Positions 3,669 through 54,979 of a DNA stretch of 64,000 bases are shown here, in pieces; the first letter of the stretch is position 1, and each line of letters begins with the position of its first letter. Where the stretch lies: IMG/VR virus record IMGVR_UViG_3300021142_000004; one strand, 5' to 3'. A model generated the notes under the pieces. It was not told the origin of the DNA. It saw only the letters and a program-made list of their open reading frames with translations, and searched no databases. Origin of the DNA: a virus. Position numbers and translations under genes: made by a program.

Positions 3669-3977
3669 TTATTTTCTATTTAATTTAAAAGGTTTTCTAC
3701 CATATAATAATTCTTTCACATTTATTATATTATATGTCTGTCGATTTTCACGACTTAAAAATTCTTCGATATGATCATATGTTCTATGATAAATCCAATA
3801 ACAAGTATTTTCTTTATTAAATTGCCAATTATTATAATCTAAATAAGAACCCCCACCAACCCATTTATGTCCAAGGTTATGTGCAATGGACAATAATTCA
3901 TTTGCAATTTCTTCTGTTTCACAATGAAAGACATTCATTCTATCATCAAATAATTCTTCCCAATCTATATTGTTCAT
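3669..3977 (-). CDS. paralog family A protein with C-terminal RKPFKLNRK tag
   Basis: WEELF..FHCETEE..IAH.LG.KW; similar to 6831 and 9142. Confidence 0.8.
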   Translation of the reverse strand: MNNIDWEELFDDRMNVFHCETEEIANELLSIAHNLGHKWVGGGSYLDYNNWQFNKENTCYWIYHRTYDHIEEFLSRENRQTYNIINVKELLYGRKPFKLNRK

Positions 3978-4405
3978 TATCTATGAAGTTTAAATGGTTT
4001 TCTATGTTGAAATTTATTAACAACATATTTTTGAAATTGTTCAAAAGTAATTTCAGTATAATCATTTGGTAGTGTTCTTTTTTCGTGATAAACCCATCCA
4101 TTAATAAGATCCTCATCTATTAAATAATAAAAATAATGTTTTCTCAAAAGTGAACAATTACATTTATCCTCCATATCATATATCTGCCAATGTCCAAGTT
4201 CTTCTGAACCTCTTATGCACCATTTTTTGGGAAAAACCAGTTCAAAGTTACCAGGATTTAAACTATAAGGGTATGCATCAGTATATATGTGTTGAATAGA
4301 ATCTTCATAACCAACTGAGGTTACTTTGCATATTGTTCCAATTGGAACTGGTGCCCAATTATTATTTGTTCTTCTTATGATATCACCTTCATTAAACTTT
4401 CCCAT
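3977..4405 (-). CDS. paralog family B protein with C-terminal RKPFKLHR tag
   Basis: MGKF..GDI.RRT...NFELV.P.KW...ITFE.F.KYV shared with 5974. Confidence 0.8.
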   Translation of the reverse strand: MGKFNEGDIIRRTNNNWAPVPIGTICKVTSVGYEDSIQHIYTDAYPYSLNPGNFELVFPKKWCIRGSEELGHWQIYDMEDKCNCSLLRKHYFYYLIDEDLINGWVYHEKRTLPNDYTEITFEQFQKYVVNKFQHRKPFKLHR

Positions 4406-4481
4406 TATTTTAATTTTTCCATGTGTTGTTTATCTTGTGGGGTATCAGCAAAGTTAAGGAATTTAAGTGAGAATAAGAAAT

Positions 4482-4745
4482 TTATTTTATGGTATCTTGG
4501 ATTAATACTTCTTCGGTGTAACAGACTTTATCACCTATATTGTAAGTGAGGTAATCTTTGAGTATCACTTTTTTTAATGTACCATCAGTCATTAAAAAAT
4601 AATGAACAACTTCAAAGTTACCATCTGTTCCAATGGGTTCGTTCTCCATATGTTTATTCTTTATTTTATAACAAGTCGTTACATTTTCATAATGACCATT
4701 ACAAGATAAGAATAAAATTGAAAAGATTAATATTAAAAATTTCAT
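4482..4745 (-). CDS. putative lipoprotein
   Basis: LFLSC lipobox. Confidence 0.7.
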   Translation of the reverse strand: MKFLILIFSILFLSCNGHYENVTTCYKIKNKHMENEPIGTDGNFEVVHYFLMTDGTLKKVILKDYLTYNIGDKVCYTEEVLIQDTIK

Positions 4746-5229
4746 TATTTTACTTTTTTATATGTGTATTTTGGTTTGAAATTTTGTTTTTCATAATCAT
4801 CTTTCCACATTTCAATATGATCCAATGCTTCTTGTTCTGTTCTGTAATGGAAGATTGATTCATACCAAAATAATTGAAAAAACAAATCTTTTTTTTGTGG
4901 AACATAGTAGGTTTCACCTCTATGATCGGTATAAGTTTTTATTCTACATTTCATTATGAAATTCTATTTGCAAGGTTAATGATATATTCTTCTTCTTCTG
5001 TTGATAATGAAGAACTATGTCCTCTGAGTTTGAGAAGAGCTTCTTCAAACTTTTTACCGGTATAAGATCTAGGTGTGTCAATTTCTTCCAAAGTTCTCTC
5101 ATCAATATCACCGTTATCTTTTAGATAATCAATAACATTATCTATATCCCTTTTATCACAACTTGATAGGAACTCATAAACATCTACATCAACAAAATTA
5201 CCTGATTGATAAACTGATGGCATAATTTT

Positions 5230-5367
5230 TTATTTAATTAATTTATGAAAAATATTTTTTATAACTCTTTTGAAGTAACCGAAACTATAATCACAATCAT
5301 TACACCAGTCAGCGTATGTTGATGAACCGGTGTTAGTACTTCCACAATTTGGACATTTCCATCCCAT
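5230..5367 (-). CDS. small zinc-ribbon protein (not in ORF track)
   Basis: MGWKCPNCGS...WCNDCDY, 45 aa, read manually. Confidence 0.7.
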   Translation of the reverse strand: MGWKCPNCGSTNTGSSTYADWCNDCDYSFGYFKRVIKNIFHKLIK

Positions 5368-5973
5368 AATATTTATTTTTTAAATTGATTTATTTTTTCT
5401 TGTAAAAAGTCCCATGATTAAATAATATTATTTAATATTTCTTTTCCAAAATCGGAAACAATGTATGTTGGGTGCCAACTTTCACCATCTGATTCGATCA
5501 AACCATATTTTGATAAATCATAAATAAGATTGAGAGTACCATTAAAGTTTCTACTTAAAAACCATTCTTCGGTTCTAAGAAGAATATTATAATCATCAGA
5601 TTTTTTAAAATCTTCTAATGTTAAATGTTCGGTATCTCTATATTCAGCATAACCTTTATTGTTAATTTCTTTCAATAAGTTAAATGCTTCTTCAGTAATT
5701 TGAAATGATAATGTTATCATAATTTATTTTTTTTAATAAGAATCAGGATCAACATCATCTATATCCGTATCAAAACACCAACATATTATTAGTTTCAATA
5801 TGTATATTAAAAGTAAACCTAGTATTATTGCACATTCACAAATTAGACTGAATATAAAATTCTGAAAAAAACTCTGTGAATCATCAACTAACATTACAAA
5901 TCCACCACAAAATGCTGGTATCATTAATAAAACCAATATAACACCGAGAATTCTTTTAAAGATTGTCATAAAA

Positions 5974-6774
5974 TTAATTTTGTGGTAAGTTATTTAATAT
6001 TTCAGGAATTGGGTGAACATATTTCCATGTAATATTGCAAAAATGTTGATTATTTTTATCTATGGTAAACTCACCATTTCCATCTGAATATCTTAAACAC
6101 CATTCAGAATTTACGACATTTATACTAACCAAACATGGAGTACCTTTTGGAATATTTGGTTCATCTTTTCCAAATATTTCATCAAATAATTTATGTTGTG
6201 GTTCGGTACAAGCAATTCTCATTTGTTTATAATCATCATAAGATACGATTATTTCATCGGAGATTGCGAAATTCTTACCATATTTATTTTGTAATCTAAC
6301 TTTCCATTCAGGACAAGCAATTTTATGTATTCTTCGATAATTTTGTATGGATAACTTCCTTTCTTTCTTTTGTATAATTGGTTCTATTTCTTGTTTCAGG
6401 ACGTATTTTTTAAAATCTTCAAACGTTATTAATGGATATGATGGTGCAAAAACCATTTTTGGTACTCCAATACCATCGTAATCAATAAAGTATGTATCAT
6501 CTGTAAAAGTATTTCTATCAATTAATTTTTCATTGGAATTACACCATTGATTAATTATTTTATGATTATCTTTGGTTCTTAAAATAGACCATTTTCTTGG
6601 AATTACAAGTTCAAAATTGGCTTCACGATATTCACCACTTTTACCTTCTAATAAAATCCATCCTTCGGATGTAGAGACACCGAAAACTTTACAAACATCA
6701 TCAGTTTTAATTTCACCAGTAAACAAGTCAACTTTAGTTCTTCTTACAATATCACCTTTTAAAAACTTACCCAT
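5974..6774 (-). CDS. paralog family B protein, extended
   Basis: N-terminal half similar to 3977-4405. Confidence 0.75.
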   Translation of the reverse strand: MGKFLKGDIVRRTKVDLFTGEIKTDDVCKVFGVSTSEGWILLEGKSGEYREANFELVIPRKWSILRTKDNHKIINQWCNSNEKLIDRNTFTDDTYFIDYDGIGVPKMVFAPSYPLITFEDFKKYVLKQEIEPIIQKKERKLSIQNYRRIHKIACPEWKVRLQNKYGKNFAISDEIIVSYDDYKQMRIACTEPQHKLFDEIFGKDEPNIPKGTPCLVSINVVNSEWCLRYSDGNGEFTIDKNNQHFCNITWKYVHPIPEILNNLPQN

Positions 6775-6830
6775 AATTATTTGTTTTTTTGTGGATACAA
6801 AGATAAGGTTATTATATGAAATAGCAAAAT

Positions 6831-7151
6831 TTATTTTCTAAATAATTTAAATTTTATTCTACCTTCTAATAATTCGTTAAGGTCTATTCTATCTGATAAT
6901 AATTCTTTCACATCAATAATAATATAACCTTCATTTTCAAAATGAGATTTATTTCCGAACATACCCTCTTGAATTTTATAACATGTACTTTCTTCATAAA
7001 AAAACCAATAATTCACATCTAAAAAAGATTTACCATTACCCCATTGATATTCATAGTTATGAGCAATTCGCAATATTACATTTGCAACATCTTCTGTTAC
7101 GCAATGGAATACGATATGTTTATTTTTAAAAACTTCTTCCCAACTAATCAT
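6831..7151 (-). CDS. paralog family A protein with C-terminal RIKFKLFRK tag
   Basis: WEEVF..FHCVTE..IAH..W. Confidence 0.8.
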   Translation of the reverse strand: MISWEEVFKNKHIVFHCVTEDVANVILRIAHNYEYQWGNGKSFLDVNYWFFYEESTCYKIQEGMFGNKSHFENEGYIIIDVKELLSDRIDLNELLEGRIKFKLFRK

Positions 7152-7624
7152 CGTCTCCTGTTTTTATTAACATAATAAGTTGTTAATACTTTTGATGAAC
7201 TAGATATATCTGGTAGATATTTATAACCATGTTCTTTAATGGGTTTTAGTTTATCGTCCATTTCTGCAACGTATGCAAGTTTTCCGTTATAATATACGAA
7301 TATTGCATTACCTTCAAGAGATTCGATAACAGTTGTATATGAATCGGTCATTGCAGCACCACCAATCCCATTCCAACCACAAGCAGTACTTCCCCATGAT
7401 TGTAAAACTACATGGAGATTAATTTTATTCCATGCTCTTAAACTTTCTTGATCCATCCACTTCTTATCTTTGGAGAATTGTAACATTCTATCGTAATAGA
7501 TATTCAATCTTTCTCTTTGAGCTGGGTCCATTTGATTAAAGACTGAACATAATTTATTATAATCACTAACTGATTGCATAATATGAACCATTTCATCCAT
7601 ATCAAGATTCTGATCGTATCTCAT
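7148..7624 (-). CDS. hypothetical phage protein
   Basis: ORF track; QSWGSTACGW.GIGG.AMT motif. Confidence 0.75.
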   Translation of the reverse strand: MRYDQNLDMDEMVHIMQSVSDYNKLCSVFNQMDPAQRERLNIYYDRMLQFSKDKKWMDQESLRAWNKINLHVVLQSWGSTACGWNGIGGAAMTDSYTTVIESLEGNAIFVYYNGKLAYVAEMDDKLKPIKEHGYKYLPDISSSSKVLTTYYVNKNRRR

Positions 7625-7741
7625 TTTTTTTATTTTTTAATTCAATATTTAATTTAAACAACACCCAACCTACGATACATACTATTGCTGTTAAAACAAC
7701 TTCTTTTACGATGTATAATATATTTTTCATATGGTAATAAT

Positions 7742-7931
7742 TTATTTTGTGTTAGATCTGATTCTTTCATCGAAACGGGATTTCTTTAAGTAATCCCAAA
7801 AACCAGTTGCATCAAAAAAATCATATTTTTTTGGCAAGTTCTTCGGCAAAACCATTACAGATTTCTCTTACTTCAGATAGTGTGAATGTTGTTTCATTAC
7901 TATCATTATAAATGTGGGGTTCTTTTTCCAT
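7742..7931 (-). pseudogene. small gene frameshifted in an A7 tract
   Basis: MEKEPH...ELAKK then continues YDFFDATGFWDY...TK* if one A at 7826-7832 is removed. Confidence 0.5.
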
Positions 7932-8531
7932 TATTATTTAATTTATTATTACACAATTGGGTATAATTTCCTCATCATCTTCTAAAAATACTGGTTCTAA
8001 TGACCGAGATTTAAGATCTTCAACAAGAAAAATACCAGGTAAATTATATACTTTATGGTAATCATTACCTTCATCATCTATTGAATAGATTACTGGCAAT
8101 TCACCATAACCTTTTTCCCTGAGTTTAATTAACTCATTAATAAGTTGATTTACTCTTATCATATTAAATGAAATAATTTAAGTTCAATAATAATACCTAA
8201 TATTGCAATGAAGAATATTGATAATTTCATTAATGGTTCTTTTTCTGTCCATCTCATAAACATATAAGATAGAAAGACAATTGAATAAATGATGAAGATG
8301 TGTGTTAAAACTTGAATACTTGTCATATGTTTATTTTTTATTCCCAAATAATATAAAATCCAATTAACATTAATGATAAGATTGCAAATAATAATGATAT
8401 AATTGATATGGTATATAATATTTTATTATATTTTTTTAACAAATCAGACATATAAACAAACGCAGAGATTGTTCCAAAAAACAATATAATGTATAAAATC
8501 GTAATAAATATTTTAAATAATACCATAAAAT

Positions 8532-9068: not shown

Positions 9069-9141
9069 TTTTTATGATTTAATAATGCAAATATATGGTT
9101 TTTAATTTAAAATTCCAAATTTTGTTCTCTAAATAATAATT

Positions 9142-9432
9142 TCATTTTCTTGATAATTTAAATGGTTTTCTTCCTCCTAATAATTCTAAAACATTTATTA
9201 CATTATACCCATCATTTATAAAATAAGTTTCACTTGCATAATGTCCTGATTTAATTTCATAACAAGTTTCATTTTCATAGATTTCCCAATGATGATCATC
9301 AATATAACTTTGATCATCACACCATTTATATCCAAGATCATTTGCAATGGTTAATAATTGACTTGCAATTACTTCTGTTTCACAATGAAATACTAATCCA
9401 TCTTGTTTGAATAGTTTTTCCCAATTAGTCAT
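9142..9432 (-). CDS. paralog family A protein with C-terminal RKPFKLSRK tag
   Basis: WEKLF..FHCETE..IA..LG.KW. Confidence 0.8.
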   Translation of the reverse strand: MTNWEKLFKQDGLVFHCETEVIASQLLTIANDLGYKWCDDQSYIDDHHWEIYENETCYEIKSGHYASETYFINDGYNVINVLELLGGRKPFKLSRK

Positions 9433-9437
9433 TTATT

Positions 9438-10586: not shown

Positions 10587-10742
10587 TCATTTTCTATATA
10601 ATTTAAATTGCGTTCTATTACCTTTGATTAAATCAAAAGATTTGTCTTTACAAAAAGCTAAAATCGCTTCTTGATTATTTGCTCTAACTTTAGCGGCATC
10701 CTCTATTTGAGTAGCAATATTTCTTAAACTTTCAGGTATCAT
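10587..10742 (-). CDS. small protein with C-terminal RTQFKLYRK tag
   Basis: Likely start MIPES at 10742. Confidence 0.7.
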   Translation of the reverse strand: MIPESLRNIATQIEDAAKVRANNQEAILAFCKDKSFDLIKGNRTQFKLYRK

Positions 10743-11229
10743 TTTATTATTTTTTATTAAAGTATTCGTAATAATCTGACCAATTTTCATCTTTTTTAGA
10801 AGAATAAAAAGTAGAATCATTAATAATTAATTTGTAATATCCTTCATTATCTTCATCCCCATACATTTCAAATAATTCATGAACCATATCTTCACCACTA
10901 ATATCCATATCATTTTCTATCCAATCCATATCACATGAGTTACCACCATATTCTATACTATTCTTATACTCACTATCGTTTAGTTTAGATTCCATAAACG
11001 TTAATAAAATATTAACTCCAACTTCATCTAATCCATTTATTAATGCTTTTTTCATTTTTTACTTTTTTAGTTATTTTGATAAATCAAATATACGAAAATT
11101 ATTTATTAAAACAAAAAATTTTAACCATTTGGGTTATAGTAAATGTAAAAGGATGGACTAGTTTTGACCCCTACCCTTCTTTGGTCATCATACCATCGTA
11201 CGCTTTTAAACTCATATATTATTTATTTT

Positions 11230-12346: not shown

Positions 12347-12664
12347 TTAAAATGATAAATCATTAAAACGACCCCATTTTCTATATAATTTAAATGGATT
12401 TCTATACTTCATATTATGTTTAATTACACCATCTCCTCTAATTAAACATTGTCTTCCATCTTTATGTTGAACAGCTAAAATAATTTCATTTACCCATCTT
12501 TCATGTTGTTCTAACCCAAAAACAATACCTTCTTCCCCCGTTAAAAATTCCTTATTATATTTTTTATTTTTAAAATCAAAATATTCAAAATATTCAATAT
12601 AATGAGAATAAGTACTACCTGGATTAATTATTTCAACATAATCTCCAATATTAAAATCACACAT
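12347..12664 (-). CDS. SH3/KOW-like small protein with near-terminal RNPFKLYRK tag
   Basis: IGDYVEII..G..Y...G.EG.V; tag followed by TGG where some other copies have TGA. Confidence 0.75.
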   Translation of the reverse strand: MCDFNIGDYVEIINPGSTYSHYIEYFEYFDFKNKKYNKEFLTGEEGIVFGLEQHERWVNEIILAVQHKDGRQCLIRGDGVIKHNMKYRNPFKLYRKWGRFNDLSF

Positions 12665-12671
12665 AAAAAAA

Positions 12672-13812: not shown

Positions 13813-14049
13813 TTATTTTCTATATAATTTAAATTTACCTCTATGTACTTTTTTAACGTATGGTTTATAAACACCATTACCATTAACTCCACCAAAATAT
13901 ACTACATCATCATCACTAGATTTAAAGATACTCTCAACAATAAATTGTAAACCAGATTTAAATCCATATCCAAGTTGAGAACAATCCAAATGTAAACCTC
14001 TTAATTCGATACATTCAACCAAATTACCAACCTTAATTTCATCTTCCAT
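13813..14049 (-). CDS. SH3/KOW-like small protein with C-terminal RGKFKLYRK tag
   Basis: IKVG.LVEC..; tag at terminus. Confidence 0.75.
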   Translation of the reverse strand: MEDEIKVGNLVECIELRGLHLDCSQLGYGFKSGLQFIVESIFKSSDDDVVYFGGVNGNGVYKPYVKKVHRGKFKLYRK

Positions 14050-14064: not shown

Positions 14065-14102
14065 AGCAAAAATAAGGGGAATTTTTCAATTCCCCAAATT
14101 TA
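14065..14102 (-). promoter_or_regulatory. fused terminator/promoter (copy 2)
   Basis: 38-bp identity to 2698-2735. Confidence 0.85.
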
Positions 14103-15484: not shown

Positions 15485-15539
15485 TTTATTTTAATGATGC
15501 AAATATATGGTATTATTTTTTACTGAACAAATTTACTTT
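15485..15539. repeat. 55-bp promoter-containing direct repeat (copy 1)
   Basis: Matches 17697-17751 with one mismatch. Confidence 0.9.
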
Positions 15540-17691
15540 CTTTTTTAAATTCAACAATTTTTTCTTTAATGTTGTAATAGTTATCTTTATTTTTTATATC
15601 AATATCGTACTTTTTAACCATATTCCTGATTTGATTTTCAGTAAGTTGTGAATTAACAGATAAATAGTCAATCATCTCCATTAAAAGATCCTTATATTTA
15701 TCCATGACTTCATCAACTTCTTTTTCTGCTGTTTCAATTAATTTTTTTGATATTTTTTCAGCATCTAACAATAAATTTTCACTCCTAAATGAAACAATTT
15801 CAGAATCCGTATGTCTTATAACAAATGGAGAATTACCATGACCATAAGCTTTAATCATCATATTAGAGGTTTCAGTTACTGAAGATAAATCAGAATAAGA
15901 ACCAGACGATAACATTTCTTCACTTTTTAGTACGTATTTTTCCGCTGCCCTACCACCTAAAGCAATTAAGATGTTTAAATATTGTATCTCTTTAGTTTTA
16001 ATATCAGGTAATTCAATTCGACAAAATCCTTCCGCATTTGATGCAGTTTTAGATACTACTAACTTAGGTATTAACTTAGCCTTAATAATTGAAACAAGTG
16101 CATGTCCAGATTCATGAATTGCAGTATATGATTGATTTTCAGATGAATCTGATTTTCTTAAATTTTCAATTTTTAATGTTACTGGATATTCAAATTTCAC
16201 ATCATCAGTTTTTGTCTTAATAATAATTTCATGTGAACTATCAATATAATTAAATGACCATATAATATTATCCGTATCAATACCCTTTAAAATTACATCA
16301 CTAATAATCTTAGTGATAAAAGAATCTATAAAAGTACTTATTGTTGATAAAACTGGTCTAACACCTTGACTGGGAAATACAGATTCTTTATAAACAATGT
16401 CTTCAAGACTTTCAGTAAAAAATAAGTTTATATCAAATTCAGATTTGAAATAATCAATTCTTTGTTTTAGTAACTTTTTAATTATTTTTCTATAAGATTC
16501 ACAAGAAAATGACGGATAAATAATGATATTATTACCCAACCTACCTATCTGCTCCATTCTAAATCTAGTGGATAAAGCATGTTTAATTTTTGATGGTGTT
16601 ATTTTTAAAGAATGTTCATGAAAAATATCAGCATCAGCGTCGGGATTTGATGAATGAGTCATGTTATATGCCTCATCAATATTACCAATAATAAAAATAA
16701 GTGATTTAGATAAATCAAATTTTAATAAAGACTTACCATCAATTAAAACACTATAAAAATGTTTTATTAAATCATCTTTAGTTTCAAACTTAGTTAAAAA
16801 CTCCAAATAACTTGAGTGAGTATGTGTTGAAAAGAAATTTGGATTATTAATTGCCATTTTCTTAAATAAACTTTCAGGGACAATAGTTAACCCTGTAATC
16901 TTATCAACATTAGTAATGCCTAAATCTTTAACATTATATGCTAGTAATTTTTTAGTATCAATAAAATTGTCAATACTAATACAATCTGGATATTCACGTT
17001 TTATAATGTCAATTGATGATTGAAAAAGACAATTTACATGAATAGTATTAATATCGGATGTTTTATAGTATTGTGAAATGTTAGCGTTGCTTTGTAAATC
17101 AGAAATAATCCTAGTTGTTTCAAGAGATTTAGTTCTTAAATTTTTATCAAAAAACATTTTTAAATCCATTTCTTCTAATTGTTTGAAATATCTAAAAAAA
17201 TTAGACTCAAGACGCTTTGGTGCAGTTAAAATACCTGAATCAATAACTTCCCACATAGAACGTAAAGATTGTCTAGCGATTTCAGCACCCTTTTCATCAA
17301 TTGTTCTACCAAATTGTATTTCATCAAAAACAATAACCATATTGTTATCATTTTTTTGACAAACTTTATCGGTTAAATCATTTTTTAATTTCCATTCACT
17401 ATCATTAGCATATTCACCAATATCAAACCTTACATACTTATTTTCTAAATCAAGTAATTTAACTAAACGTTCAACTAAGTCTGTTTTACCAGTTGCAGTC
17501 ATACCAAATAAATTAATAATTAATGGTCTCTTTAATGACTTTGGAAAAACATAATAAGATCTAATATTATCTATAATATTATCAATAACCGAATCTAAAC
17601 CTATATACTCACTTTTTAATTGTTCTTTAACAATTTCCAAATTAGCGTTTTTCTTAACAATATTTTTTCTTTCTTTTAATGTTATTTTCAT
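15520..17691 (-). CDS. soluble Clp-type AAA+ ATPase fused to M41 (FtsH-type) zinc protease
   Basis: Walker A GMTATGKT, Walker B IVFDE, GVRP sensor-2, HESGH, GGRAAE, GSYSDL; no TM segment. Confidence 0.88.
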   Translation of the reverse strand: MKITLKERKNIVKKNANLEIVKEQLKSEYIGLDSVIDNIIDNIRSYYVFPKSLKRPLIINLFGMTATGKTDLVERLVKLLDLENKYVRFDIGEYANDSEWKLKNDLTDKVCQKNDNNMVIVFDEIQFGRTIDEKGAEIARQSLRSMWEVIDSGILTAPKRLESNFFRYFKQLEEMDLKMFFDKNLRTKSLETTRIISDLQSNANISQYYKTSDINTIHVNCLFQSSIDIIKREYPDCISIDNFIDTKKLLAYNVKDLGITNVDKITGLTIVPESLFKKMAINNPNFFSTHTHSSYLEFLTKFETKDDLIKHFYSVLIDGKSLLKFDLSKSLIFIIGNIDEAYNMTHSSNPDADADIFHEHSLKITPSKIKHALSTRFRMEQIGRLGNNIIIYPSFSCESYRKIIKKLLKQRIDYFKSEFDINLFFTESLEDIVYKESVFPSQGVRPVLSTISTFIDSFITKIISDVILKGIDTDNIIWSFNYIDSSHEIIIKTKTDDVKFEYPVTLKIENLRKSDSSENQSYTAIHESGHALVSIIKAKLIPKLVVSKTASNAEGFCRIELPDIKTKEIQYLNILIALGGRAAEKYVLKSEEMLSSGSYSDLSSVTETSNMMIKAYGHGNSPFVIRHTDSEIVSFRSENLLLDAEKISKKLIETAEKEVDEVMDKYKDLLMEMIDYLSVNSQLTENQIRNMVKKYDIDIKNKDNYYNIKEKIVEFKKESKFVQ

Positions 17692-19686: not shown

Positions 19687-20130
19687 TTATTTTATTTTTA
19701 ATTCTTTTTCCATATCTCTCTTAATATCCTTCTCTTTAAGGGATTCTTTTTTGTTGGCGTGGTTCTTACCCTTAGCCAGGAATATTTCGACCTTTAATAG
19801 TCCCTTATCGTTACAAAACACACGATAAGGAACAATCGTTAAACCTTTAACCAATTCTTTTTTCAGTCTATTTAATTCAACCTTCTTTAATAGGAGTTTT
19901 CTATCTCTTGTTGATTTATGACTATATGGTGAATCAGTCTCAGGAATATTAGAATTCCTTATGAATAGTTCATCATTATCAAATATACAGAACGATTCTG
20001 ACAATGATAGTTTACCTGCGAAGATTGATTTTACTTCAGTACCAGTTAATACTATCCCTGCAACTTCATTACGAATAAATTCATAATCAAACTTAGCTCT
20101 CTTATTTACTATGTTAATATTCCGTGACAT
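19687..20130 (-). CDS. smpB: SsrA-binding protein
   Basis: NKRAKFDY, AGIVLTGTEVKSI, RDRKLLL, GLTIVP, AKGK. Confidence 0.96.
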   Translation of the reverse strand: MSRNINIVNKRAKFDYEFIRNEVAGIVLTGTEVKSIFAGKLSLSESFCIFDNDELFIRNSNIPETDSPYSHKSTRDRKLLLKKVELNRLKKELVKGLTIVPYRVFCNDKGLLKVEIFLAKGKNHANKKESLKEKDIKRDMEKELKIK

Positions 20131-21005: not shown

Positions 21006-21320
21006 TTATTTTCTTTTTAATTTGAAAGGTTTTCTTTCATCTTTATTTATTGGGTCGGTATTTCCAATAGTAACGTTAACGTCATTTTCTATAAGAATAT
21101 CCCTAAGAAAACCCAAATTAAATGATGTTTTACCCCCTGTCGCCGGTCCTCCGATGATAGTGCCAGGATATTCACCCACATTTAGACCACTTGAAAGGGG
21201 TGGTTCATCAAAATTATCAAAAACATTACTAAAATAATAATTACCGTAAAGACTAAATCCACCATTATTATGGACATGTTTAACGTATGTGTCAATATCA
21301 ATTATGTTAACCTTTTTCAT
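21006..21320 (-). CDS. small protein with helicase-like P-loop fragment and RKPFKLKRK tag
   Basis: GL..GE..TIIGGPATGGKTSF without the rest of an ATPase. Confidence 0.65.
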   Translation of the reverse strand: MKKVNIIDIDTYVKHVHNNGGFSLYGNYYFSNVFDNFDEPPLSSGLNVGEYPGTIIGGPATGGKTSFNLGFLRDILIENDVNVTIGNTDPINKDERKPFKLKRK

Positions 21321-25749: not shown

Positions 25750-26880
25750 TTATTTAAAACCAATTTTGGTTTTTTCTTCCGATTTGAACTCTTCCTCATT
25801 GACATTATATATTTCAGTTAATGTCATTGGTTTTGTTGCAACAAAATCTTTGATCTTCAAGTGATTAACCAATTTATTTGATTCCTCAATGGATAATTTA
25901 TCAAATTTATGTTCAGCAATTAATCTACCTTTACGGAGTAATGCTTCATCAATCTTCTTCTTATCCATATTAAATGTTGCCACAATCTGAATATTCAACA
26001 TATCACTTAATATACCATCAGTAATGTTAAGGATGTTTGAAACCCCAGCAGTTCCTCCAGTATTTCTATCGGTGATCACCCTTTCAGCATCCTCAATGAA
26101 GAGGATACTATCGGAATTATCAATAAGGAATGGTGTCATTTCAGGTGAGGTGATAAAGTCTGCCAGATGTGGTGGAACAAATATTACTCTCTTATCCTTA
26201 ATCTTACTTGCCAAGTACTTTAAATAGTGGGTTTTACCTGTACCAGGTGTACCATGTAACAATACCAACCCTTTACCATTAGGTTTATTAAGATGTGTTA
26301 TTATTTTATTATGTACCTTTGTGAAATGAGAACCATAATTCAATTCAATATCCATCTTTTGTTTTGGTAATTCAAATAGAACAGTACTATAACCAGATTT
26401 AGATGTTGTAATTAAACGAATGTTATTTTCTTTTTCCTTTTCGGGTTTACCTAAGATAGTTAATTCATTAATTAATTGACGATAAGTATCTTCAGATGTG
26501 TTTGAAAACACATAAGGAGAACCACCGGTATTTTTATTTTTACCTTTTCTTTTATTTTTAATGTTTCTACCACCGAAAGAGATTACAATTATACCACCAT
26601 CATTGTATTTTTTATAATAATGTGATACTAAATAATGTCTCTCTTTTGATTGATATTCTTTTGTGTGAACATGAATAAATCCTTTTTCAGTTATTAACTT
26701 GAAAATCTCATCACCGTTATACTTTATTTCTTCGGAAGGTTTAAAATATCTATCAATCGGCTTACCTGTTTTATTCATAATAAAAGGTCCCACCGGAAAA
26801 TCATCCGAATCAAACGGACGATAAAATGTCTCTTCGTGTATTCCATCCATATCTAATATATTTTTAAACTCCTCCTTCAC
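25750..26880 (-). CDS. AAA+ ATPase
   Basis: GTPGTGKT, FIEDAE, LN..DG, D.ALLR.GRL. Confidence 0.93.
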   Translation of the reverse strand: MKEEFKNILDMDGIHEETFYRPFDSDDFPVGPFIMNKTGKPIDRYFKPSEEIKYNGDEIFKLITEKGFIHVHTKEYQSKERHYLVSHYYKKYNDGGIIVISFGGRNIKNKRKGKNKNTGGSPYVFSNTSEDTYRQLINELTILGKPEKEKENNIRLITTSKSGYSTVLFELPKQKMDIELNYGSHFTKVHNKIITHLNKPNGKGLVLLHGTPGTGKTHYLKYLASKIKDKRVIFVPPHLADFITSPEMTPFLIDNSDSILFIEDAERVITDRNTGGTAGVSNILNITDGILSDMLNIQIVATFNMDKKKIDEALLRKGRLIAEHKFDKLSIEESNKLVNHLKIKDFVATKPMTLTEIYNVNEEEFKSEEKTKIGFK

Positions 26881-28818: not shown

Positions 28819-28855
28819 GCAAAAATAAGGTGGAACTTTCATTCCACCAAATTTA
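28819..28855 (-). promoter_or_regulatory. fused terminator/promoter, GGTGG/CCACC variant
   Basis: TTTG-GTGGAATGAAAGTTCCACCT-TATTTTTG; near-identical at 36017-36053. Confidence 0.8.
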
Positions 28856-35991: not shown

Positions 35992-36036
35992 AATTTATAA
36001 TTTATTTTTTTCTATTGCAAAAATAAGGTGGAATTT

Positions 36037-36909
36037 TCATTCCACCAAATTTAGTTTCATTAAAATTGTCTTTTTTACTATTTCATAATTTTTATGTATA
36101 TCATATTCCCAAAATCTAACAAATTCAATTGAATTTTCAATTAACATTAGATTTTTACGTCTATCTCGGTCATTATTTTTTAGTTGTATATCATTTAACA
36201 TATTTTTTTTATAAAATAAAGGATTCCCATGCCAATAATCACCATCACACTCAATAACAAAATTATAATCAAGTAAAAAAAAATCACATAAAAACCCATT
36301 TAATGGATAGTTTTTTTTATATTTAATTTTTAATTCATCTAATAAATTTTTTATTTTTAATTCAATTTTTGTTGGTTTTTTTGTTTGGATCATCGCGTCA
36401 TTCAATCTTTTTATTATTGTTTTTTTCTCATCTTCAGTTTTTATTTCCCATTCATTTTTCTTTGATATACTATTTTTAATTCCATAATTTTTTATTCTTT
36501 CATCCGTCAATTTCGTTAATCCATTGTTCCAAGATTTTTTACCATACATTGGGTTATTTTGACCTTGATGTGATGGTAAAATACCTGTTAAAAATAATTG
36601 TTTTCTAGTTTTTGATATTTTTTCACCGGCAATTTTTATTCTTTCTGAATTATTTTTAGTTAAACCATTATTTGGTGATTTTTTACCATACATTGGGTTA
36701 TTTTCTCCACTTAATAAACGTTGTTTTATTTTTTTTGTTTGTTCGTTAGTATGTTTTAATTTTAATCGTTTTATTTTTATCCAAATACTTTCACATGTTC
36801 TTTCATGTTTTTGCATAAATAAAGGACATATCTCTATTTTAGATAGTCCTTTATTTACATATAAATCAATTAAAAATTTTATTTCTTCTTCTGACCATAA
36901 ATTTCCCAT
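36037..36909 (-). mobile_element. homing endonuclease, NUMOD3 repeats plus Vsr/DUF559 nuclease
   Basis: G.NNPMYGK repeats, T.IE, DF, IECDGDYWH, RFWE. Confidence 0.9.
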
Positions 36910-38102: not shown

Positions 38103-38140
38103 AGCAAAAATAAGGGGAATTTTTCAATTCCCCAAATTTA
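38103..38140 (-). promoter_or_regulatory. fused terminator/promoter (copy 3)
   Basis: 38-bp identity to 2698-2735. Confidence 0.85.
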
Positions 38141-40453: not shown

Positions 40454-41485
40454 TTAATATGACATGAATGAAAAATGTTTTTGTTTTGCTGGTTCAACAC
40501 TATATTGAACATGTTTCACGTTATTGTCCTTATCTGTTTCTTCAATGATAAATGTATCATTAGATAAAACAGACAAAATTTCACCAAGATATACGTCATT
40601 TACATAGAATTCATCACCAATTGAATCCATTGTTATTTTTCTTGGTGAGATTGTTGCATCACCTCTATATAACTCAGTAAGATTATTTGGTTGTTTGGTG
40701 ATAAACACATTAAATTTATCATCCAACATTTTAATATTGAAGACATCTTTAAAGTTCAATGGATCTTCATTGTGAATATTAACTTCATCAATTACTGCAT
40801 TAACAATATCAACAGAAATAGTTTCCAATGTTGAAATGAAATCAACTGTACATTCTTTAAGGTCTTTGTGTACCAATCTATCTTCAACAATTTCTGTAAT
40901 AACAGATAATGTTAAATCTTTATATGTCTTTAAATATCTAATACGACCTGGACGTTGTAAAAGATTTTGATTGATGTATAAGTTATTTGTTGTAAATATA
41001 AACACCTTACGATAACCATTATCCAAAGCACCATCCATAATGGTTAAGATTTCTTCATCTTTATTTTCTCTTTGATTAAAAACTTTTTCAAATTCATCAA
41101 CAAATATAATAACATTTTGTTGAATATCATTAATAAAATTTGGTATATTATTATATCCCTTATGAATAATAATAACTGGTAATTCTAATAAATTACAAAT
41201 TTGTTTTGCGGTAACTGTTTTACCAGTACCTTTAACCCCATTCATAAGGATACCCAAGTTTGAACTGGTACTATCGTATGTTTTCTTAACACGATTAATA
41301 AAATTAGATTCAATACCATATACCTTAGATGGAAGTTTAAATGAATCGTCAATAAGTGTAACATATAATTCACCAGTTTTCTCATTTAGATTTAATTTAT
41401 AAACCCCCCTTTCTAATTTTTCCACGTTCTGTGAAACTTCTCTAATGTAGAAATCATTAGAGGTCTTAACCCATTGATTGTTCAT
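40454..41485 (-). CDS. AAA+ ATPase
   Basis: GVKGTGKT, FVDEFEK, RPGRIRY. Confidence 0.92.
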   Translation of the reverse strand: MNNQWVKTSNDFYIREVSQNVEKLERGVYKLNLNEKTGELYVTLIDDSFKLPSKVYGIESNFINRVKKTYDSTSSNLGILMNGVKGTGKTVTAKQICNLLELPVIIIHKGYNNIPNFINDIQQNVIIFVDEFEKVFNQRENKDEEILTIMDGALDNGYRKVFIFTTNNLYINQNLLQRPGRIRYLKTYKDLTLSVITEIVEDRLVHKDLKECTVDFISTLETISVDIVNAVIDEVNIHNEDPLNFKDVFNIKMLDDKFNVFITKQPNNLTELYRGDATISPRKITMDSIGDEFYVNDVYLGEILSVLSNDTFIIEETDKDNNVKHVQYSVEPAKQKHFSFMSY

Positions 41486-41525: not shown

Positions 41526-41774
41526 TTAATTACCCAAATCTTTTTTTCTTTTTAATTTAAAAGGTTTTCTTACTTCCTTACCATTAACCAAATTTTTTTC
41601 TTTTCGATAGAACTGTTCTTGTAATAATGTCATATACATACCTCTAAAATATTTTTTTTTCAATAGAAAATTTATAATATTAGACAAATGACTATCTGTA
41701 AGATCTTTAACAAGAATACGTTTACCTTCTTGAGTTGTCCAATAATTAGTTTCCCTTAATTCAGAATGTTTCAT
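41526..41774 (-). CDS. small phage protein with near-terminal RKPFKLKRK tag
   Basis: W.T.EG..I...D.TDSHL.N.I. Confidence 0.75.
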   Translation of the reverse strand: MKHSELRETNYWTTQEGKRILVKDLTDSHLSNIINFLLKKKYFRGMYMTLLQEQFYRKEKNLVNGKEVRKPFKLKRKKDLGN

Positions 41775-49425: not shown

Positions 49426-49739
49426 TATTCATTTTTTTCTTTAACGCTTCAATAAGTTTACTTGAGGCATATTCTTTACCATACCTAACTTGTCCTATTT
49501 TTTTCCACTTTTCCAATTCTTCCGGTGTCATATCATGACTTATTTTATATACCTTACCATCAGAACCATCCAATGATAAATGGAAATTTTTCATTGTTGA
49601 TATATAAGGAATATTATAATGTATTCCCAATTCACCATCAACTATTTCTTGATAACCAAACCATTTAACTTCACCAAAATTTATACTACCATACTTCGTA
49701 AAATGTACATATTTTGAACCGGGTGTAAATCCTAAATCA

Positions 49740-49841
49740 TTATTCATTTTTTTTTAATTTATTTAATCTTTTTGTTTCTAACATTTTTTTTATTGACTCT
49801 TCCGATGGTTTTATACCTAAATGTGATTCTCTAAGTTTTTT
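49740..49841 (-). pseudogene. C-terminal NUMOD3-like relic of a homing endonuclease
   Basis: Start-less frame KLRESHLGIKPSEESIKKMLETKR..*. Confidence 0.6.
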
Positions 49842-50447
49842 TTTAATTTAAAAAATCCTCACCATTATAATCAGGATGATTTTCTTTCATGTGATCAATT
49901 CCTTTACCCCAAAAATATCCAATTAAACCAGCAATTGTACATGAAATTATAATACTAATTATTATTGTCATACTTTTTCTTTTTAAAAAGGTCTTTTAAT
50001 TTTTTTTCTTTTACTATAACATTTCCACTTTCATCTAATAATGGTGCTTCCCATAAAAAATATAGAAGAAGAATCATCATTATAATGTAAAATAAAAATA
50101 AATAATCTATCATTGTATAAAATATTTTGACTTCCAAAACTGGAACCATTTTCTTTTTATTACTGGTTTACATTGAGAAAATGGGTTTTCTCCGAAAGAT
50201 ACTTTATTTAAATACTTTGAGGTTAATACATTTAAGAATACTTCATGATATTCTTTTGGAATATCACAAAAATCACCTGTTATCTCTATTTTAAGGTCAA
50301 TAGGACCACTTTCAGTATATACTGTAAATACTTCATGTAATTTAACCACAGTACTTGTTTTTAAATTAACATAGTGATTACCTAAATTGTACGATGTTTT
50401 ATTTTCCATTATGCAAATATAATGTAATGAGTTTGATTAAAAAAATA

Positions 50448-52328
50448 TTAGATAAAAAATTGTTCTCCAAGCCATACCCTGTTAAATTCGATATCTGTTC
50501 GTGGTGGTGGTATTTCAGATTTAACTTCAATACCATTAATCTTTGCCCTAACTTTCTTTTTTGACAATGAATTTAACATACCATACCTTGCATATTTATT
50601 GGTCTTATCACATAATAATTCCAATGCAATTTTAAAATATTCTGGTGGATCTGCATTACAGAAATGTCTTGATTGTACTCTCATTCCTGTTTGTGTTAAA
50701 AATTCAGAAGTTACTCTATCTGATTTATCTTCAGTTCTTAATGAAATGATAATAGAACTTTGTCTATCTGCATAAGTACCAACACAATGATGCATAAATG
50801 CACCTTCTTCCGCATACTCTTCTTCTCTTTTAAGTATGTGAGGATATAGGGTTATTTTTTCCTTATCTTTAAGAACCTCAATTGGTGTTTCAACATCCTC
50901 TACCATCTTTTCATTAAATTCATATTCTATCACCCAACCCTTTCTTATTTCCAACATCATCTTAGATAATTCAAGATGTTCAGTATTGAAATCAGAATAT
51001 GTCTTAGATCTAATAATAAATTCCGGAATATAATCTCTTATTTTTCTAATCATCATAAGATGATCAATATATTCACCTATAAATGCATCTACATTGTTTA
51101 TATTTTCAATTGAATTTAATATATGTATAAGATTTTCTTTTTCTTTGTCTTCCAATATTAAGTTATTATTATTATTTATTTCACGATAAAATGATTTATT
51201 ATGTAGTTCTTTTTGTTTTCCACTATTTCTTTCTTTTTTATTTTCTAATTTAAACAGTTCTAACCTTAAATTAGCAATATACTTTGAATAATCATTACCA
51301 ATTAAACTACATACAAGAATAAAAAAACTAATATCAATATTAGGTACTAAATGAAATAATTTAATTGTTGATTTGGATTTATATCCAAAATAATCTAAAA
51401 TACTAGCAATTAATTTATTTTCATTCTTTTTTAAGAATTTCTGTGTTGGGTAAAAATTAATTAAAAGGTCTTTATAATCATTAGGTACTTTAATACCTTT
51501 ACGTTCAACAAACTTTTTTATAAATGAATCAAAAAAGTTGTGTCTATCGGTAACATCAGTTCTTGTAATTCCTAATTCACGACATACCACATCATAAAAT
51601 TCTTCATCATTAAAGATATTATCAAAATCTTTAGTTAATTCATCATAATGTGATGGGATTAAATTTGTTTTCTTACCAAATAGTCCATAATTTGTTGTGA
51701 TAATTTGTTGAAATGTTTTAAATGAATTTTTTCTAAAAATTTTTTTATTTGAATTTGAAGTTTTTTTTATAGAAAGAGTGATAAAATTAAAATTTTTATC
51801 AATTGTTACTGAATGGACAGATGTTACTTTGCGATAAAATCTACAAAAAATATCTCTCTTTTTTTCTTGTCTATATATTTTAATAGTAATTCTATCACCT
51901 TTAATACGAATAGATCTACTCAATCTAATTAAATTAACCTCGGAAAATGGGTTAATGAAATGTTTTTTTATGGTTTCTTCCTTATTTGTATATAAACTAT
52001 TTGTATTGACACTAGGATGTTTATATGCAAAGTTTATCTGAATTTTTTCACCAAGATTTTCAACCCCACTATAAAAGAATTTGGTATCCTTCTTTGGTTC
52101 TCTATGAGTTAAAATAACAAATTTACCAATTTTATTTTCACTATTTATAAATCTGATATTACTATGTAAAGTTTTATTACCAAAAAAATCTTCATCATCA
52201 ATTTCATCAATTTCATCAATTTCACCCACAAAAGTATTCATTGATTTACGTCTTTCACTTAAATCACTATAATTCTTAAATGGTGTAATAACCGCATAAT
52301 CAAAAATCTGTTCTAATAGTGTCTCCAT
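50448..52328 (-). CDS. PcfJ-like domain protein
   Basis: C-terminal EEG..MHHCVGTY...I.SLR. Confidence 0.75.
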   Translation of the reverse strand: METLLEQIFDYAVITPFKNYSDLSERRKSMNTFVGEIDEIDEIDDEDFFGNKTLHSNIRFINSENKIGKFVILTHREPKKDTKFFYSGVENLGEKIQINFAYKHPSVNTNSLYTNKEETIKKHFINPFSEVNLIRLSRSIRIKGDRITIKIYRQEKKRDIFCRFYRKVTSVHSVTIDKNFNFITLSIKKTSNSNKKIFRKNSFKTFQQIITTNYGLFGKKTNLIPSHYDELTKDFDNIFNDEEFYDVVCRELGITRTDVTDRHNFFDSFIKKFVERKGIKVPNDYKDLLINFYPTQKFLKKNENKLIASILDYFGYKSKSTIKLFHLVPNIDISFFILVCSLIGNDYSKYIANLRLELFKLENKKERNSGKQKELHNKSFYREINNNNNLILEDKEKENLIHILNSIENINNVDAFIGEYIDHLMMIRKIRDYIPEFIIRSKTYSDFNTEHLELSKMMLEIRKGWVIEYEFNEKMVEDVETPIEVLKDKEKITLYPHILKREEEYAEEGAFMHHCVGTYADRQSSIIISLRTEDKSDRVTSEFLTQTGMRVQSRHFCNADPPEYFKIALELLCDKTNKYARYGMLNSLSKKKVRAKINGIEVKSEIPPPRTDIEFNRVWLGEQFFI

Positions 52329-52403
52329 TGAGTAAAATTTATTTATAGCAAATATATGTTTAAAAAATATAATCACCAAATATTTATTGAAAAAATAATA
52401 ACT

Positions 52404-52532
52404 ATGGCAGCAAAAGCAAAAGGTGGTGTATCCTCAAACAAAGTTACATTTGGTAAAAGAAAAGGTGGTAAAGCAAAAAAATCTTTTAACAAACATGAAA
52501 ACAAAAAAGTTTATAGAGGTCAAGGTAGGTAA
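52404..52532 (+). CDS. small basic phage protein ending YRGQGR (not in ORF track)
   Basis: MAAKAKGG...KKVYRGQGR*, TATTTAT upstream, terminator downstream. Confidence 0.85.
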   Translation: MAAKAKGGVSSNKVTFGKRKGGKAKKSFNKHENKKVYRGQGR

Positions 52533-52534
52533 TT

Positions 52535-52563
52535 AAAAAAGGGAGAATTTATTTCTCCCTTTT
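52535..52563. terminator. bidirectional intrinsic terminator
   Basis: AAAAGGGAGAA-TTTAT-TTCTCCCTTTT between convergent genes. Confidence 0.85.
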
Positions 52564-52568
52564 AAATA

Positions 52569-53372
52569 TTAATAATTCATCCATAACGTTTCAACCTTTG
52601 TCTTTTTATTGAAGTTACCATCAATTGTTTTAACCTCAAAGTTTAGTTTTTTAAACCCATTATCTGTTAGTCGGTCATACAAATCACATTCATAACCACT
52701 AATAATGATTTTAGATTTACTTTCAATTACTGCATCCAAGAACTCAATATGACCATTTCTATCCATATCGACTTTATATCTAGCAGATGTTCTAGTGGAT
52801 TGTTCATATGGTGGATCCAAATATAATAAATTATTTGGACCATCATATTTTTTTATTAACTTTACACCATCGGTATTTGATACAATTACTCTTGATAATC
52901 TATCATGTAATTCAGGTAATCTATCAATACATGATAAAAAATCGGATACCGCTTTACTCATACCTCTACGAATACTAGAATTCATTGAGAATCCACCAAT
53001 ACCATTATGTGAGGTTCTATTAACATAGAAGAAATAGAATGCCCTGGTGATTATATCCAAGTCATCAAATTTCAATTTCTCTTTGAAATCCTTTCTTAGA
53101 TCCTCAGAATAGATTGTTAAATCACATTTTTGTTTGAATGATTCAAACATATCTTTGTCAGATATTACTTTATATAATGAATAAACATTTTGTTCCAAAT
53201 CATTATATACTTCAATTTTGGATGGTTCTTTTTTAAGACCTATACTAAAAGAACCTCCATACGCCTCAACGTATGTGTCGTATTCACTATTTAATGGAAA
53301 ATGTTGAATTATGTTATTTGCCATGTTAAATTTACCTCCATAATATCTAATTGGTGGGTTTATACTTTTCAT
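52569..53372 (-). CDS. Dam-like (D12 class) DNA adenine methyltransferase
   Basis: YYGGK, YVE..GG, EVYND, YLDPPY. Confidence 0.93.
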   Translation of the reverse strand: MKSINPPIRYYGGKFNMANNIIQHFPLNSEYDTYVEAYGGSFSIGLKKEPSKIEVYNDLEQNVYSLYKVISDKDMFESFKQKCDLTIYSEDLRKDFKEKLKFDDLDIITRAFYFFYVNRTSHNGIGGFSMNSSIRRGMSKAVSDFLSCIDRLPELHDRLSRVIVSNTDGVKLIKKYDGPNNLLYLDPPYEQSTRTSARYKVDMDRNGHIEFLDAVIESKSKIIISGYECDLYDRLTDNGFKKLNFEVKTIDGNFNKKTKVETLWMNY

Positions 53373-53383
53373 TTTATTTAATT

Positions 53384-53947
53384 TTATATAATGTGTGAAT
53401 AAAAACAGTTGCTATCAATATCATTTGATTCCTTAATAATAGTATTAATCATGAAATTATTTGGTAGGGTATTACATGTTAAAATCATTTTAACATAATT
53501 TTGATTTAAATGATAAGGTATTGAGTTAGTGATTCGATCTATGTTATTATCATGATATGAATCAATATTATCAATAATAATGACATTAAAACTTTTACCA
53601 TGAATCGTACTTAAAAAAGTATTTTCTGTACAAAAACGTACTTTACAACCGTTAAAATACGTAATGTTATAATATATTCCTTGTAAAATATTACCATTAT
53701 TAATCATATTTAAAATTGTTTTATATTGTTCAATATTTGGTAATACAAATAAAATATTTAAATTTATATTATTCTGAATAAGATGTTTCACATAATAAGA
53801 TAAAAGATATGTGATACCAACTTGTCTTTCTTGTTGTATTACGATATTATTATATGAATCATCATTTAAAACATTAAACAATTTTAATTGATGTGGGTAA
53901 AGTTCACTAGAGAACTCATTTTTTCTATATAATTTAAAAATTCTCAT
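53384..53947 (-). CDS. degenerate terminase-ATPase-like protein with N-terminal RIFKLYRK tag
   Basis: LYPHQ, RQVGIT (Walker A Lys absent), G.S...IIIDN. Confidence 0.65.
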   Translation of the reverse strand: MRIFKLYRKNEFSSELYPHQLKLFNVLNDDSYNNIVIQQERQVGITYLLSYYVKHLIQNNINLNILFVLPNIEQYKTILNMINNGNILQGIYYNITYFNGCKVRFCTENTFLSTIHGKSFNVIIIDNIDSYHDNNIDRITNSIPYHLNQNYVKMILTCNTLPNNFMINTIIKESNDIDSNCFYSHII

Positions 53948-54339
53948 TTAAATTCCTTATATTTGCGGATTATCAGTTCTTTGAATTAAAAACTCATCTA
54001 TTTCTCGTTCAGTAAGTCCCACACCTGGTAGTGAACTTAGTGATGTTATTCTTTTACCAAAAGTCTCAACAAAATCATCACTAAGATATGCTGGTATTAC
54101 TTTTGTCTTTAATCTAAGATTTAAAGAACCAAAAGTTCCACCGTCCTCTTCTCTTTCCATAAAGAATGCAGCAAACCCCGGTAGATCATGTGGTAAAAAT
54201 TCTTCAGACAATTGTTTATGAACATCATCTAAAAGTCCTTTACCATGTTCAATACGTGTCCTGTAATACTTATTTCTATCAATGGTAGTAGATGCTAGTG
54301 TATTGTCATTATCGTCTAAAATACTTAATCTAATTTTCA

Positions 54340-54750
54340 TTACTTTTTAATTAAAAGTCTATCATAAAATAAACTGAACATAAAATTTCTTGTAATACCT
54401 AATATCAAAAGATATGATAAAAGTAATATTATTCCATAATGAAATGTTATGAATCCTGCTAGTACAATTGCAACACCATTAAAAATTTCTCTCATCATTT
54501 TCAAGAAATGCCATGCGTCTGTTAATTGTACTGGTTTAGTAACAAATATAGTAAAAATTTTCCATTTTACCAAACCGTTCTTAGGATTTCCATCAACATA
54601 TTTATTCTTCCAACTAAATAATGGATTCCAAAATAATTGATTTTTATCTCTAAAAATACTGATATTATAGTGGTGGGATAATGTGTCCATAATTGCATCA
54701 CATATACCACTTAGACAATATATGATGATTGGGATGATCGTGTAATACAT
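54340..54750 (-). CDS. conserved phage membrane protein
   Basis: A.MD...H, WNP..SW.NKY, TDAWH..K. Confidence 0.8.
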   Translation of the reverse strand: MYYTIIPIIIYCLSGICDAIMDTLSHHYNISIFRDKNQLFWNPLFSWKNKYVDGNPKNGLVKWKIFTIFVTKPVQLTDAWHFLKMMREIFNGVAIVLAGFITFHYGIILLLSYLLILGITRNFMFSLFYDRLLIKK

Positions 54751-54751
54751 A

Positions 54752-54979
54752 TTAACGTTTTTTTCTTTTTAATTTAAATGATTCTCTATATGAAATTGGT
54801 AATGTAATACATATATCAACATCAATATGTTCTATTGAACCAACATAATCAAGATAAAATAATTGTCCTGATGGCATTGGTAATGATGCAATTTGAAGAG
54901 ATAAAATATCTATTAATTCTTGTTGATGATAAATAAATAGTATATCATCTTTTCTATATAATTTAAATGGTGTCCTCAT
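54752..54979 (-). CDS. small protein with capsid-like fragment and FKLxRK tags at both ends
   Basis: PMPSGQLFYLDY core; MRTPFKLYRK and RESFKLKRK. Confidence 0.7.
   Translation of the reverse strand: MRTPFKLYRKDDILFIYHQQELIDILSLQIASLPMPSGQLFYLDYVGSIEHIDVDICITLPISYRESFKLKRKKR

Follow-up and report, generated by a model that had tools for sequence, protein, structure and literature searches.

The 64,000-nucleotide stretch of record IMGVR_UViG_3300021142_000004 analysed here (the window), which belongs to a giant, uncultured phage of fresh water, has a G+C content of 27%, carries nearly all of its genes on the minus strand and forms the end of a 163,504-bp ENA contig, 149.5 kb of which was scanned. 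Eleven of its genes encode proteins that share a basic terminal peptide of nine residues with the consensus R-x-x-F-K-L-x-R-K, referred to below as the tag. A six-frame scan identified 12 copies of the core, FKL.R, in the window, all on the minus (coding) strand, all in the frame of an open reading frame (ORF) and all 0–15 residues from its end, which matches the 12 in-frame terminal copies listed in a first-pass annotation made by inspection of the sequence. Ten tags are C-terminal, with 0–10 residues after the FKLxR core, and two directly follow the initial Met; the 75-residue product of 54752–54979 is tagged at both ends. Tagged genes make up about 6% of the genes in the window part of the contig. 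They are listed with other features in Table 1 and are named below by their lower coordinate.

The number and placement of these copies are far from what chance would give. The composition of the proteins predicts 0.31 copies of FKL.R as against the 12 observed, and 2000 shuffles of residues within each protein averaged 0.27 copies and never exceeded 3. Residues no more than 15 positions from a protein end account for 19% of the total, giving P ~2e-9 for a terminal location of 12 out of 12 copies, which bears out the terminal placement described in the first-pass annotation. At the DNA level, the pattern AGA-N6-TTTAAATTA-N3-AGAAAA, with up to two mismatches, matched 11 times (0.15 expected); no match in the window was out of frame, in intergenic or other non-coding DNA, or on the plus strand. 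The 149.5 kb of contig has 13 true copies, again all terminal and on the coding strand. The additional one, MRTPFKLYRE, is the N-terminus of a 169-residue protein whose gene adjoins the primase gene, and brings the N-terminal copies of the contig to three. The only other FKL.R strings in the 149.5 kb are two chance matches, one in a 33-codon ORF and one split by a stop codon. The internal, out-of-frame or non-coding copies that would have marked the motif as a DNA element or an artefact of base composition were thus not found in the window. No enzyme or structural protein within the 149.5 kb bears the tag, which extends to the contig what the first-pass annotation had said of enzymes; untagged proteins include the baseplate and tail giants, ribonucleotide reductase (RNR), a RecA-like protein, a sigma factor and the products of a sugar-modification cluster.

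Table 1. Tag-bearing genes and other features (window coordinates unless a contig segment is named)
Feature	Position	Strand	Tag and tag DNA	Remarks
102-residue carrier, family 1	3669–3977	minus	C-terminal RKPFKLNRK-stop, 3672–3698	
142-residue carrier, family with beta-rich N-domain	3977–4405	minus	C-terminal RKPFKLHR-stop, 3980–4003	
106-residue carrier, family 1 paralogue	6831–7151	minus	RIKFKLFRK-stop, 6834–6860	
96-residue carrier, family 1 paralogue	9142–9432	minus	RKPFKLSRK-stop, 9145–9171	
Carrier, 77-residue ORF	10587–10820	minus	RTQFKLYRK-stop, 10590–10616	Probably begins at a later Met at 10790 (67 residues)
105-residue carrier	12347–12664	minus	RNPFKLYRK then WGRFNDLSF-stop, 12377–12403	Relative of the same family stops straight after the tag (FKLNR-stop)
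78-residue carrier	13813–14049	minus	RGKFKLYRK-stop, 13816–13842	First gene behind promoter 14067–14098
104-residue carrier	21006–21320	minus	RKPFKLKRK-stop (Phe is TTC), 21009–21035	Tag kept in orthologues P0023, P0031, P0034 and P0035
82-residue carrier, basic body	41526–41774	minus	RKPFKLKRK then KDLGN-stop, 41544–41570	3' end overlaps the promoter of AAA gene 40454–41485
187-residue carrier	53384–53947	minus	N-terminal MRIFKLYRK, 53921–53947	Weak terminase-ATPase likeness; orthologue G001 keeps the tag, with AAG for Lys
75-residue carrier	54752–54979	minus	MRTPFKLYRK, 54950–54979; RESFKLKRKKR-stop, 54761–54787	Mini-fragment of T4-type major capsid protein
Clp-D2/M41 protease gene	15520–17691	minus		ClpB/ClpC-D2-type AAA+ fused to FtsH M41 protease; lacks membrane anchor and N-domain
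SmpB gene	19687–20130	minus		Pfam E 2.8e-42
AAA ATPase gene	25750–26880			
AAA ATPase gene	40454–41485			
ClpP gene, same contig	L102:9289–9963 (record 60667–61341)			Pfam CLP_protease, 188.6 bits, whole model
Bacteroidota-type promoter	2700–2731			Example of TTTG-N19/20-TAnnTTTG
Bacteroidota-type promoter	14067–14098			As above
Bacteroidota-type promoter	28820–28851			As above
Bacteroidota-type promoter	36018–36049			As above
Bacteroidota-type promoter	38105–38136			As above

Conservation of the tag is evident at the level of the peptide. In family 1, for which 16 proteins with 45–60% identity could be aligned, R94, F97, K98, L99 and R101 are invariant and P96 nearly so, and the tail is the best-conserved part of these proteins. 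Over 49 unique sequence contexts, every codon change at the Phe, Lys, Leu and second Arg positions is synonymous (TTC; AAG; CTT, TTG or CTA; AGG or CGT); since these contexts were gathered by their match to FKL.R, the count is blind to replacements, and the family 1 alignment serves as the independent test. Leucine is retained despite a two-base change from TTA to CTT, and Pro occurs in 36 of the 49 contexts. The tag DNA has stop codons in both of its other frames, and one frame alone is used. The synonymous variants reported in the first-pass annotation (TTC, CTT, CCA/CCT and AGG) are all present, and its claim of peptide-level selection is borne out by the invariant residues of family 1. The residues following the tag in carriers 12347 and 41526, put down in the former case to loss of a stop codon, instead reflect an overlap of the gene end with the -33 box of the promoter that follows.

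The bodies to which the tag is joined are diverse. With the tag masked, 45 unique carriers, including those of relatives, fall into 14 body families, and the window carriers outside family 1 have nothing but the tag in common with it. The hhalign alignment of family 1 with the family of carrier 3977 is limited to 11 tail columns, and the architectures predicted by AlphaFold differ, being alpha/beta for family 1 and having a beta-rich N-domain in 3977. The family 1 body is also found, untagged, as part of larger proteins in an unrelated 89.6-kb phage and in Ruminococcus phages (gp53). No significant Pfam or PHROGs family was found for the carriers apart from weak matches, and a fold search with the family 1 model gave no match in Foldseek PDB and a best Z of 2.9 in VIA-align wide. 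A likeness of family 1 to T4 RegA, suggested by a protein-atlas lead (score 0.85), found no support in either fold search. Carrier 54752 and its orthologues P0019, P0038 and P0039 are proteins of 75–98 residues that consist of two conserved segments of T4-type major capsid protein with a tag at each end; P0039 matches Pfam Gp23 at 31.7 bits (cut-off 24.4). The order of the segments is swapped (Gp23 profile positions 171–195, then 13–45), and 23 internal residues of P0019 are missing from the window copy. Two of the bodies have untagged relatives in other phages. The bodies are therefore of differing origin, with the tag added to them. The portable label on unrelated bodies, at either terminus, that was described in the first-pass annotation is thus well supported by the 14 families, the tail-only alignment and the N- and C-terminal copies. 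Its description of the carriers as mostly unrelated needs qualification, as 3669, 6831 and 9142 are paralogues with 40–49% identity and 3977, 12347 and 13813 may share an SH3-like N-terminal strand.

The tag is predicted to be disordered. In the AlphaFold2 model of 3669 the predicted local distance difference test score (pLDDT) is 88 for the fold but drops from 62 to 47 along tail residues 93–102, and in that of 3977 it is below 50 for residues 134–142; neither tail has secondary structure, and in both models the tag stands directly behind a terminal helix. Such a low-pLDDT tail is, in these models, the behaviour of a short linear motif awaiting a partner. The tag is also conserved amid divergent surroundings and is found on unrelated proteins, as is general for short linear motifs. 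We therefore regard it, with a probability of roughly three in four, as a short linear motif that in this phage lineage came to be appended, in the form of a disordered tail and mostly at the C-terminus, to many unrelated small proteins whose genes lie in operons with host-type promoters.

Relatives of the tag were recovered only from a narrow range of phages. A DNA-pattern scan of IMG/VR identified a 52.7-kb contig that is syntenic with window positions 33–64 kb at 80–99% identity and retains its four tag copies, one with AAG for Lys. A stricter DNA pattern found 17 loci in metagenomes, nearly all of them true copies and from freshwater samples. A distant 251-kb scaffold has six terminal copies within 20 kb, with TTC, TTG, CTA and AGG variants. 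A profile of the tail retrieved 37 protein clusters, all of this clade, and an exhaustive hidden Markov model search of 1.84 billion representatives retrieved nine 50% clusters at E<=0.001, a figure that is no full census because tail-only matches fall under the listing threshold. As the DNA-pattern and tail-profile searches recover only the freshwater clade, the tag is, on the sequences available, restricted to a single clade of huge phages from fresh water. One tagged family 1 gene lies on a 5.7-kb contig (L052) filed in the 955-kb giant-virus bin IMGVR_UViG_GVMAG-M-3300009182-39_000001; this bin shows no enrichment of the motif (49 versus 43 in a control), so that the contig probably comes from a phage and was assigned to the wrong bin. 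In two related loci (L077:11346–11742 and L085:8789–9185), ARAGORN reports an ochre-suppressor tRNA (anticodon TTA) beside tRNA-Leu(TAA), near a truncated copy of a family 1 gene.

The tagged genes appear to be transcribed by the host. The promoter pattern TTTG-N17-21-TAnnTTTG occurs 26 times in the window as against 5.9 expected, 24 times on the coding strand and mostly just upstream of genes. In several of these promoters the spacer is a perfect hairpin (GGGGAATT-GAAAA-AATTCCCC or GGTGGAAT…TTCCACC), and such promoters may be combined terminator-promoters or operator sites. TAnnTTTG is the -7 box of flavobacterial sigma-A (PMC9723704), and the start codons of the window lack Shine-Dalgarno sequences, as is reported for Bacteroidetes (PMC6847099). 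Because of these flavobacterial-type promoters and starts without Shine-Dalgarno sequences, the host is likely to be a member of the Bacteroidota, whose RNA polymerase would transcribe the tagged genes. The term early, applied to the carriers in the first-pass annotation, stands only as a deduction from the host-type promoters.

In addition to the genes of Table 1, the window encodes a UvrD-type helicase, an RNA ligase, an M23 peptidase, thymidylate synthase, DNA methylases, UvdE, a PRPP-synthase-like protein and the head domain of a CCA-adding/poly(A) polymerase. The ClpP of the contig has the Ser/His/Asp motifs, including GMAASMG and HQ; its gene adjoins an SbcC-like gene and a sigma-70-type factor and is not in a head module, although its PHROGs label is head maturation protease. 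SmpB is the protein partner of transfer-messenger RNA (tmRNA). ARAGORN and Rfam detected neither tRNA nor tmRNA genes in the window or the 149.5 kb of contig, the genome being larger than the contig, and no tmRNA in the related loci. The same contig has an IS605 OrfB/TnpB-like gene (Cas12f1-like_TNB, L105:6214–7458) between the third RNR fragment and a gp25-like baseplate gene.

Since four of five consecutive residues of the tag are invariant and its distribution is restricted to one clade, we infer one specific receptor, probably either phage-encoded or co-adapted. The explanation that we favour, though only tentatively, has the tag serving AAA+ proteolysis as a terminal degron or a docking signal. 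An AAA+ unfoldase would engage or dock the exposed tail, candidate readers being host ClpX together with phage ClpP, or the soluble Clp-D2/FtsH-M41 protease of the phage, and the tagged proteins, perhaps plus whatever they hold, would be cleared as one group. ClpP, SmpB and the soluble Clp/M41 protease give the tag a setting in which proteolysis and ribosome rescue are prominent, and this adds circumstantial weight to the link with proteolysis; ClpX, moreover, recognises unstructured degrons whether they are N- or C-terminal (PMC12723719).

Known systems resemble the tag in some respects and differ in others. The ClpX recognition signals (N-motifs 1–3 and C-motifs 1–2) and ssrA are, like the tag, short unstructured peptides found at either terminus of unrelated proteins and read by a single reader. 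Some of their classes combine basic with hydrophobic residues, as do RRKKAI of MuA and N-motif 2, which in the work of Flynn et al. from 2003 reportedly reads Met-basic-hydrophobic. The tag matches none of the signal classes, however, and it is far more invariant in its core and is encoded in the genes of chosen phage proteins; these classes are cited in PMC12723719. The C-terminal XB tail of SspB (…LRVVK) shares with FKLYR the order hydrophobic-basic-hydrophobic-x-basic. It belongs to a single proteobacterial adaptor family and docks on the N-domain of ClpX, tethering the adaptor to the unfoldase; the tag, by contrast, is found on about 14 families, also at N-termini, and its x is often polar. 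For both the ClpX degrons and the XB tail the likeness is limited to residue pattern and terminal position. Two other kinds of terminal signal do not fit the tag: it is not an ssrA/tmRNA-type degron, as it ends in basic R-K instead of a non-polar …LAA, is gene-encoded and comes from a contig in 149.5 kb of which no tmRNA was found, nor is it a PDZ-type C-terminal ligand, given the 0–10 residues behind the core and the three N-terminal copies on the contig. It is likewise distinct from a twin-arginine (Tat) signal, since the order is F-K-L and not F-L-K, no hydrophobic stretch follows and most copies are C-terminal.

Several observations weigh against a protease signal, or at least against one that was selected as a peptide alone. 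Known degrons that are read by an AAA+ pore are much looser in sequence than the invariant core of the tag, which suits a structured pocket better than such a pore. The Clp/M41 protease family has a far wider distribution than the tag, with more than 130 relatives, many on contigs of 140–720 kb, and is common in sequences of huge-phage size; a search of IMG/VR for its close relatives found none. A 375-kb relative has an 82%-identical copy of the protease in a 22-kb stretch without the tag. Given this wider distribution and the untagged stretch, the protease does not predict the tag. As noted above, no tmRNA was found in the 149.5 kb of contig. The tag codons, moreover, are unusually uniform: TTA is used in 42 of 49 contexts and AGA in 47 of 49 (14 of 14 in family 1), so that TTA reaches 86–100% and AGA 95–100% in the tag versus 56–62% in the carrier bodies and at other gene ends, and conserved Leu codons elsewhere in the tagged genes vary freely. 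An effect of position was rejected as the cause, because the last 15 codons of other genes have 61% TTA and 62% AGA. This uniformity exceeds what peptide selection alone predicts, and some further influence, exerted on the DNA or RNA or stemming from copy-and-paste spread, is probably at work too; copy-and-paste or gene conversion between tags would suit a portable element, as would a second constraint at the RNA level.

Taken further, the codon pattern could mean that the DNA or RNA is itself the selected object and the peptide a by-product, for instance as a recombination hot-spot that shuffles cassettes or a re-initiation signal at the adjacent start. Six of the ten C-terminal tags do abut the next start codon, three sharing the junction AGAAAATAATATGG and a fourth having CGTTAATATG, and the 12-nt string TATGGTAGAAAA flanks on both sides the 24 nt encoding PFKLNRK and the stop codon of carrier 3669 (window 3657–3704, minus strand), a direct repeat that may be the footprint of tag acquisition or may simply coincide with where the following gene begins. 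Such an origin is nevertheless very unlikely, for only one reading frame is used although the element has stops in all three, four of the C-terminal tags precede promoters instead of genes, the contig has three N-terminal copies, the two-base change noted above leaves Leu unaltered and no copy lies in non-coding DNA. Alternatively, the peptide might act without specificity, its basic and aromatic residues anchoring it to nucleic acid or an anionic membrane, as its net charge of +4 to +5, its Phe and Leu and the acidic nature of most carrier bodies (isoelectric point 4.2–6) would allow. We consider this improbable, because electrostatic anchors tolerate shuffling of their residues and the order F-K-L-x-R is fixed over 49 contexts; with both faces of the peptide fixed, a specific protein pocket is to be preferred over electrostatic sticking. 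The tag also has neither an amphipathic pattern nor the GRP core of an AT-hook, and an AT-hook was rejected, as Pro is present in only 36 of 49 contexts while F-K-L is invariant.

Two other destinations for the tagged proteins are conceivable, though in our view rather unlikely. One is a phage-made compartment or assembly, in particular the procapsid, into which the tag would load small proteins for injection. The tag is reminiscent of the cargo-loading peptides of encapsulins and of the T4 capsid targeting sequence, portable peptides at the N- or C-terminus of unrelated cargo that are read by one shell or scaffold protein; it is clade-specific and predicted to be disordered, occurs at either terminus of unrelated proteins, and one of its carriers is itself a capsid-protein fragment. 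It differs from these peptides in its consensus, in lacking a Leu-x-Glu site and in having carriers outside the structural module: their genes lie in host-type-promoter operons among genes of nucleotide metabolism, far from the structural genes. No prohead-protease cleavage motif was found beside the tag, and the linkers are very short. A T4 capsid targeting sequence as such was rejected, most copies being C-terminal and no L/I-x-E following the N-terminal ones. The other destination is a hub that is not a protease, such as the replisome clamp, single-stranded DNA-binding protein (SSB), RNA polymerase, the ribosome or one of the two AAA ATPases of the window other than the Clp/M41 fusion. The invariant core suggests a structured pocket, as just noted; the 13th copy is encoded next to the primase gene, carrier 41526 immediately upstream of an AAA gene, and the 376-residue AAA protein has an N-domain of 190 residues without family assignment. 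Precedents are the clamp-binding tails and the MIT-MIM pairing of Vps4, and in clamp-binding, PIP-box and SSB C-terminal tails, as in the tag, many clients share a short terminal peptide for the pocket of one hub. Those tails, however, are acidic or hydrophobic and belong to replication enzymes, whereas the tag is strongly basic and belongs to small uncharacterised proteins; it is unlike any motif known for the clamp, SSB or RNA polymerase, and no replication enzyme in the 149.5 kb carries it.

Within the proteolytic explanation a more elaborate role may be imagined, which we rate as least probable of all. Small domains that bind targets or act as decoys would form a library, and the tag would make each of them an adaptor. 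Each would hold a host protein, such as a defence sensor for capsid or terminase proteins, and the shared tail would hand the pair to a protease under phage control, either the Clp/M41 chimera or host ClpX paired with phage ClpP. The doubly tagged capsid mini-fragment and the terminase-like ATPase remnant would be members of such a library. The variable binding domains of the first-pass annotation are conjectural. If true, this would be a natural, modular system of targeted degradation.

A literature search with the motif strings found no relevant paper. Shared terminal docking peptides are a known kind of element, and the novelty lies in the peptide described here, the proteins that bear it and the clade in which it occurs. 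By means of shared terminal peptides, among them degrons, clamp tails and cargo-loading peptides, cells and viruses route many dissimilar proteins to a common machine. With only nine residues, the tag might be of use as a small, portable label in work on Bacteroidota. If its reader were identified, a large group of uncharacterised proteins would be seen to share one fate, and this could reveal how a large phage of Bacteroidota times or targets its early proteins.

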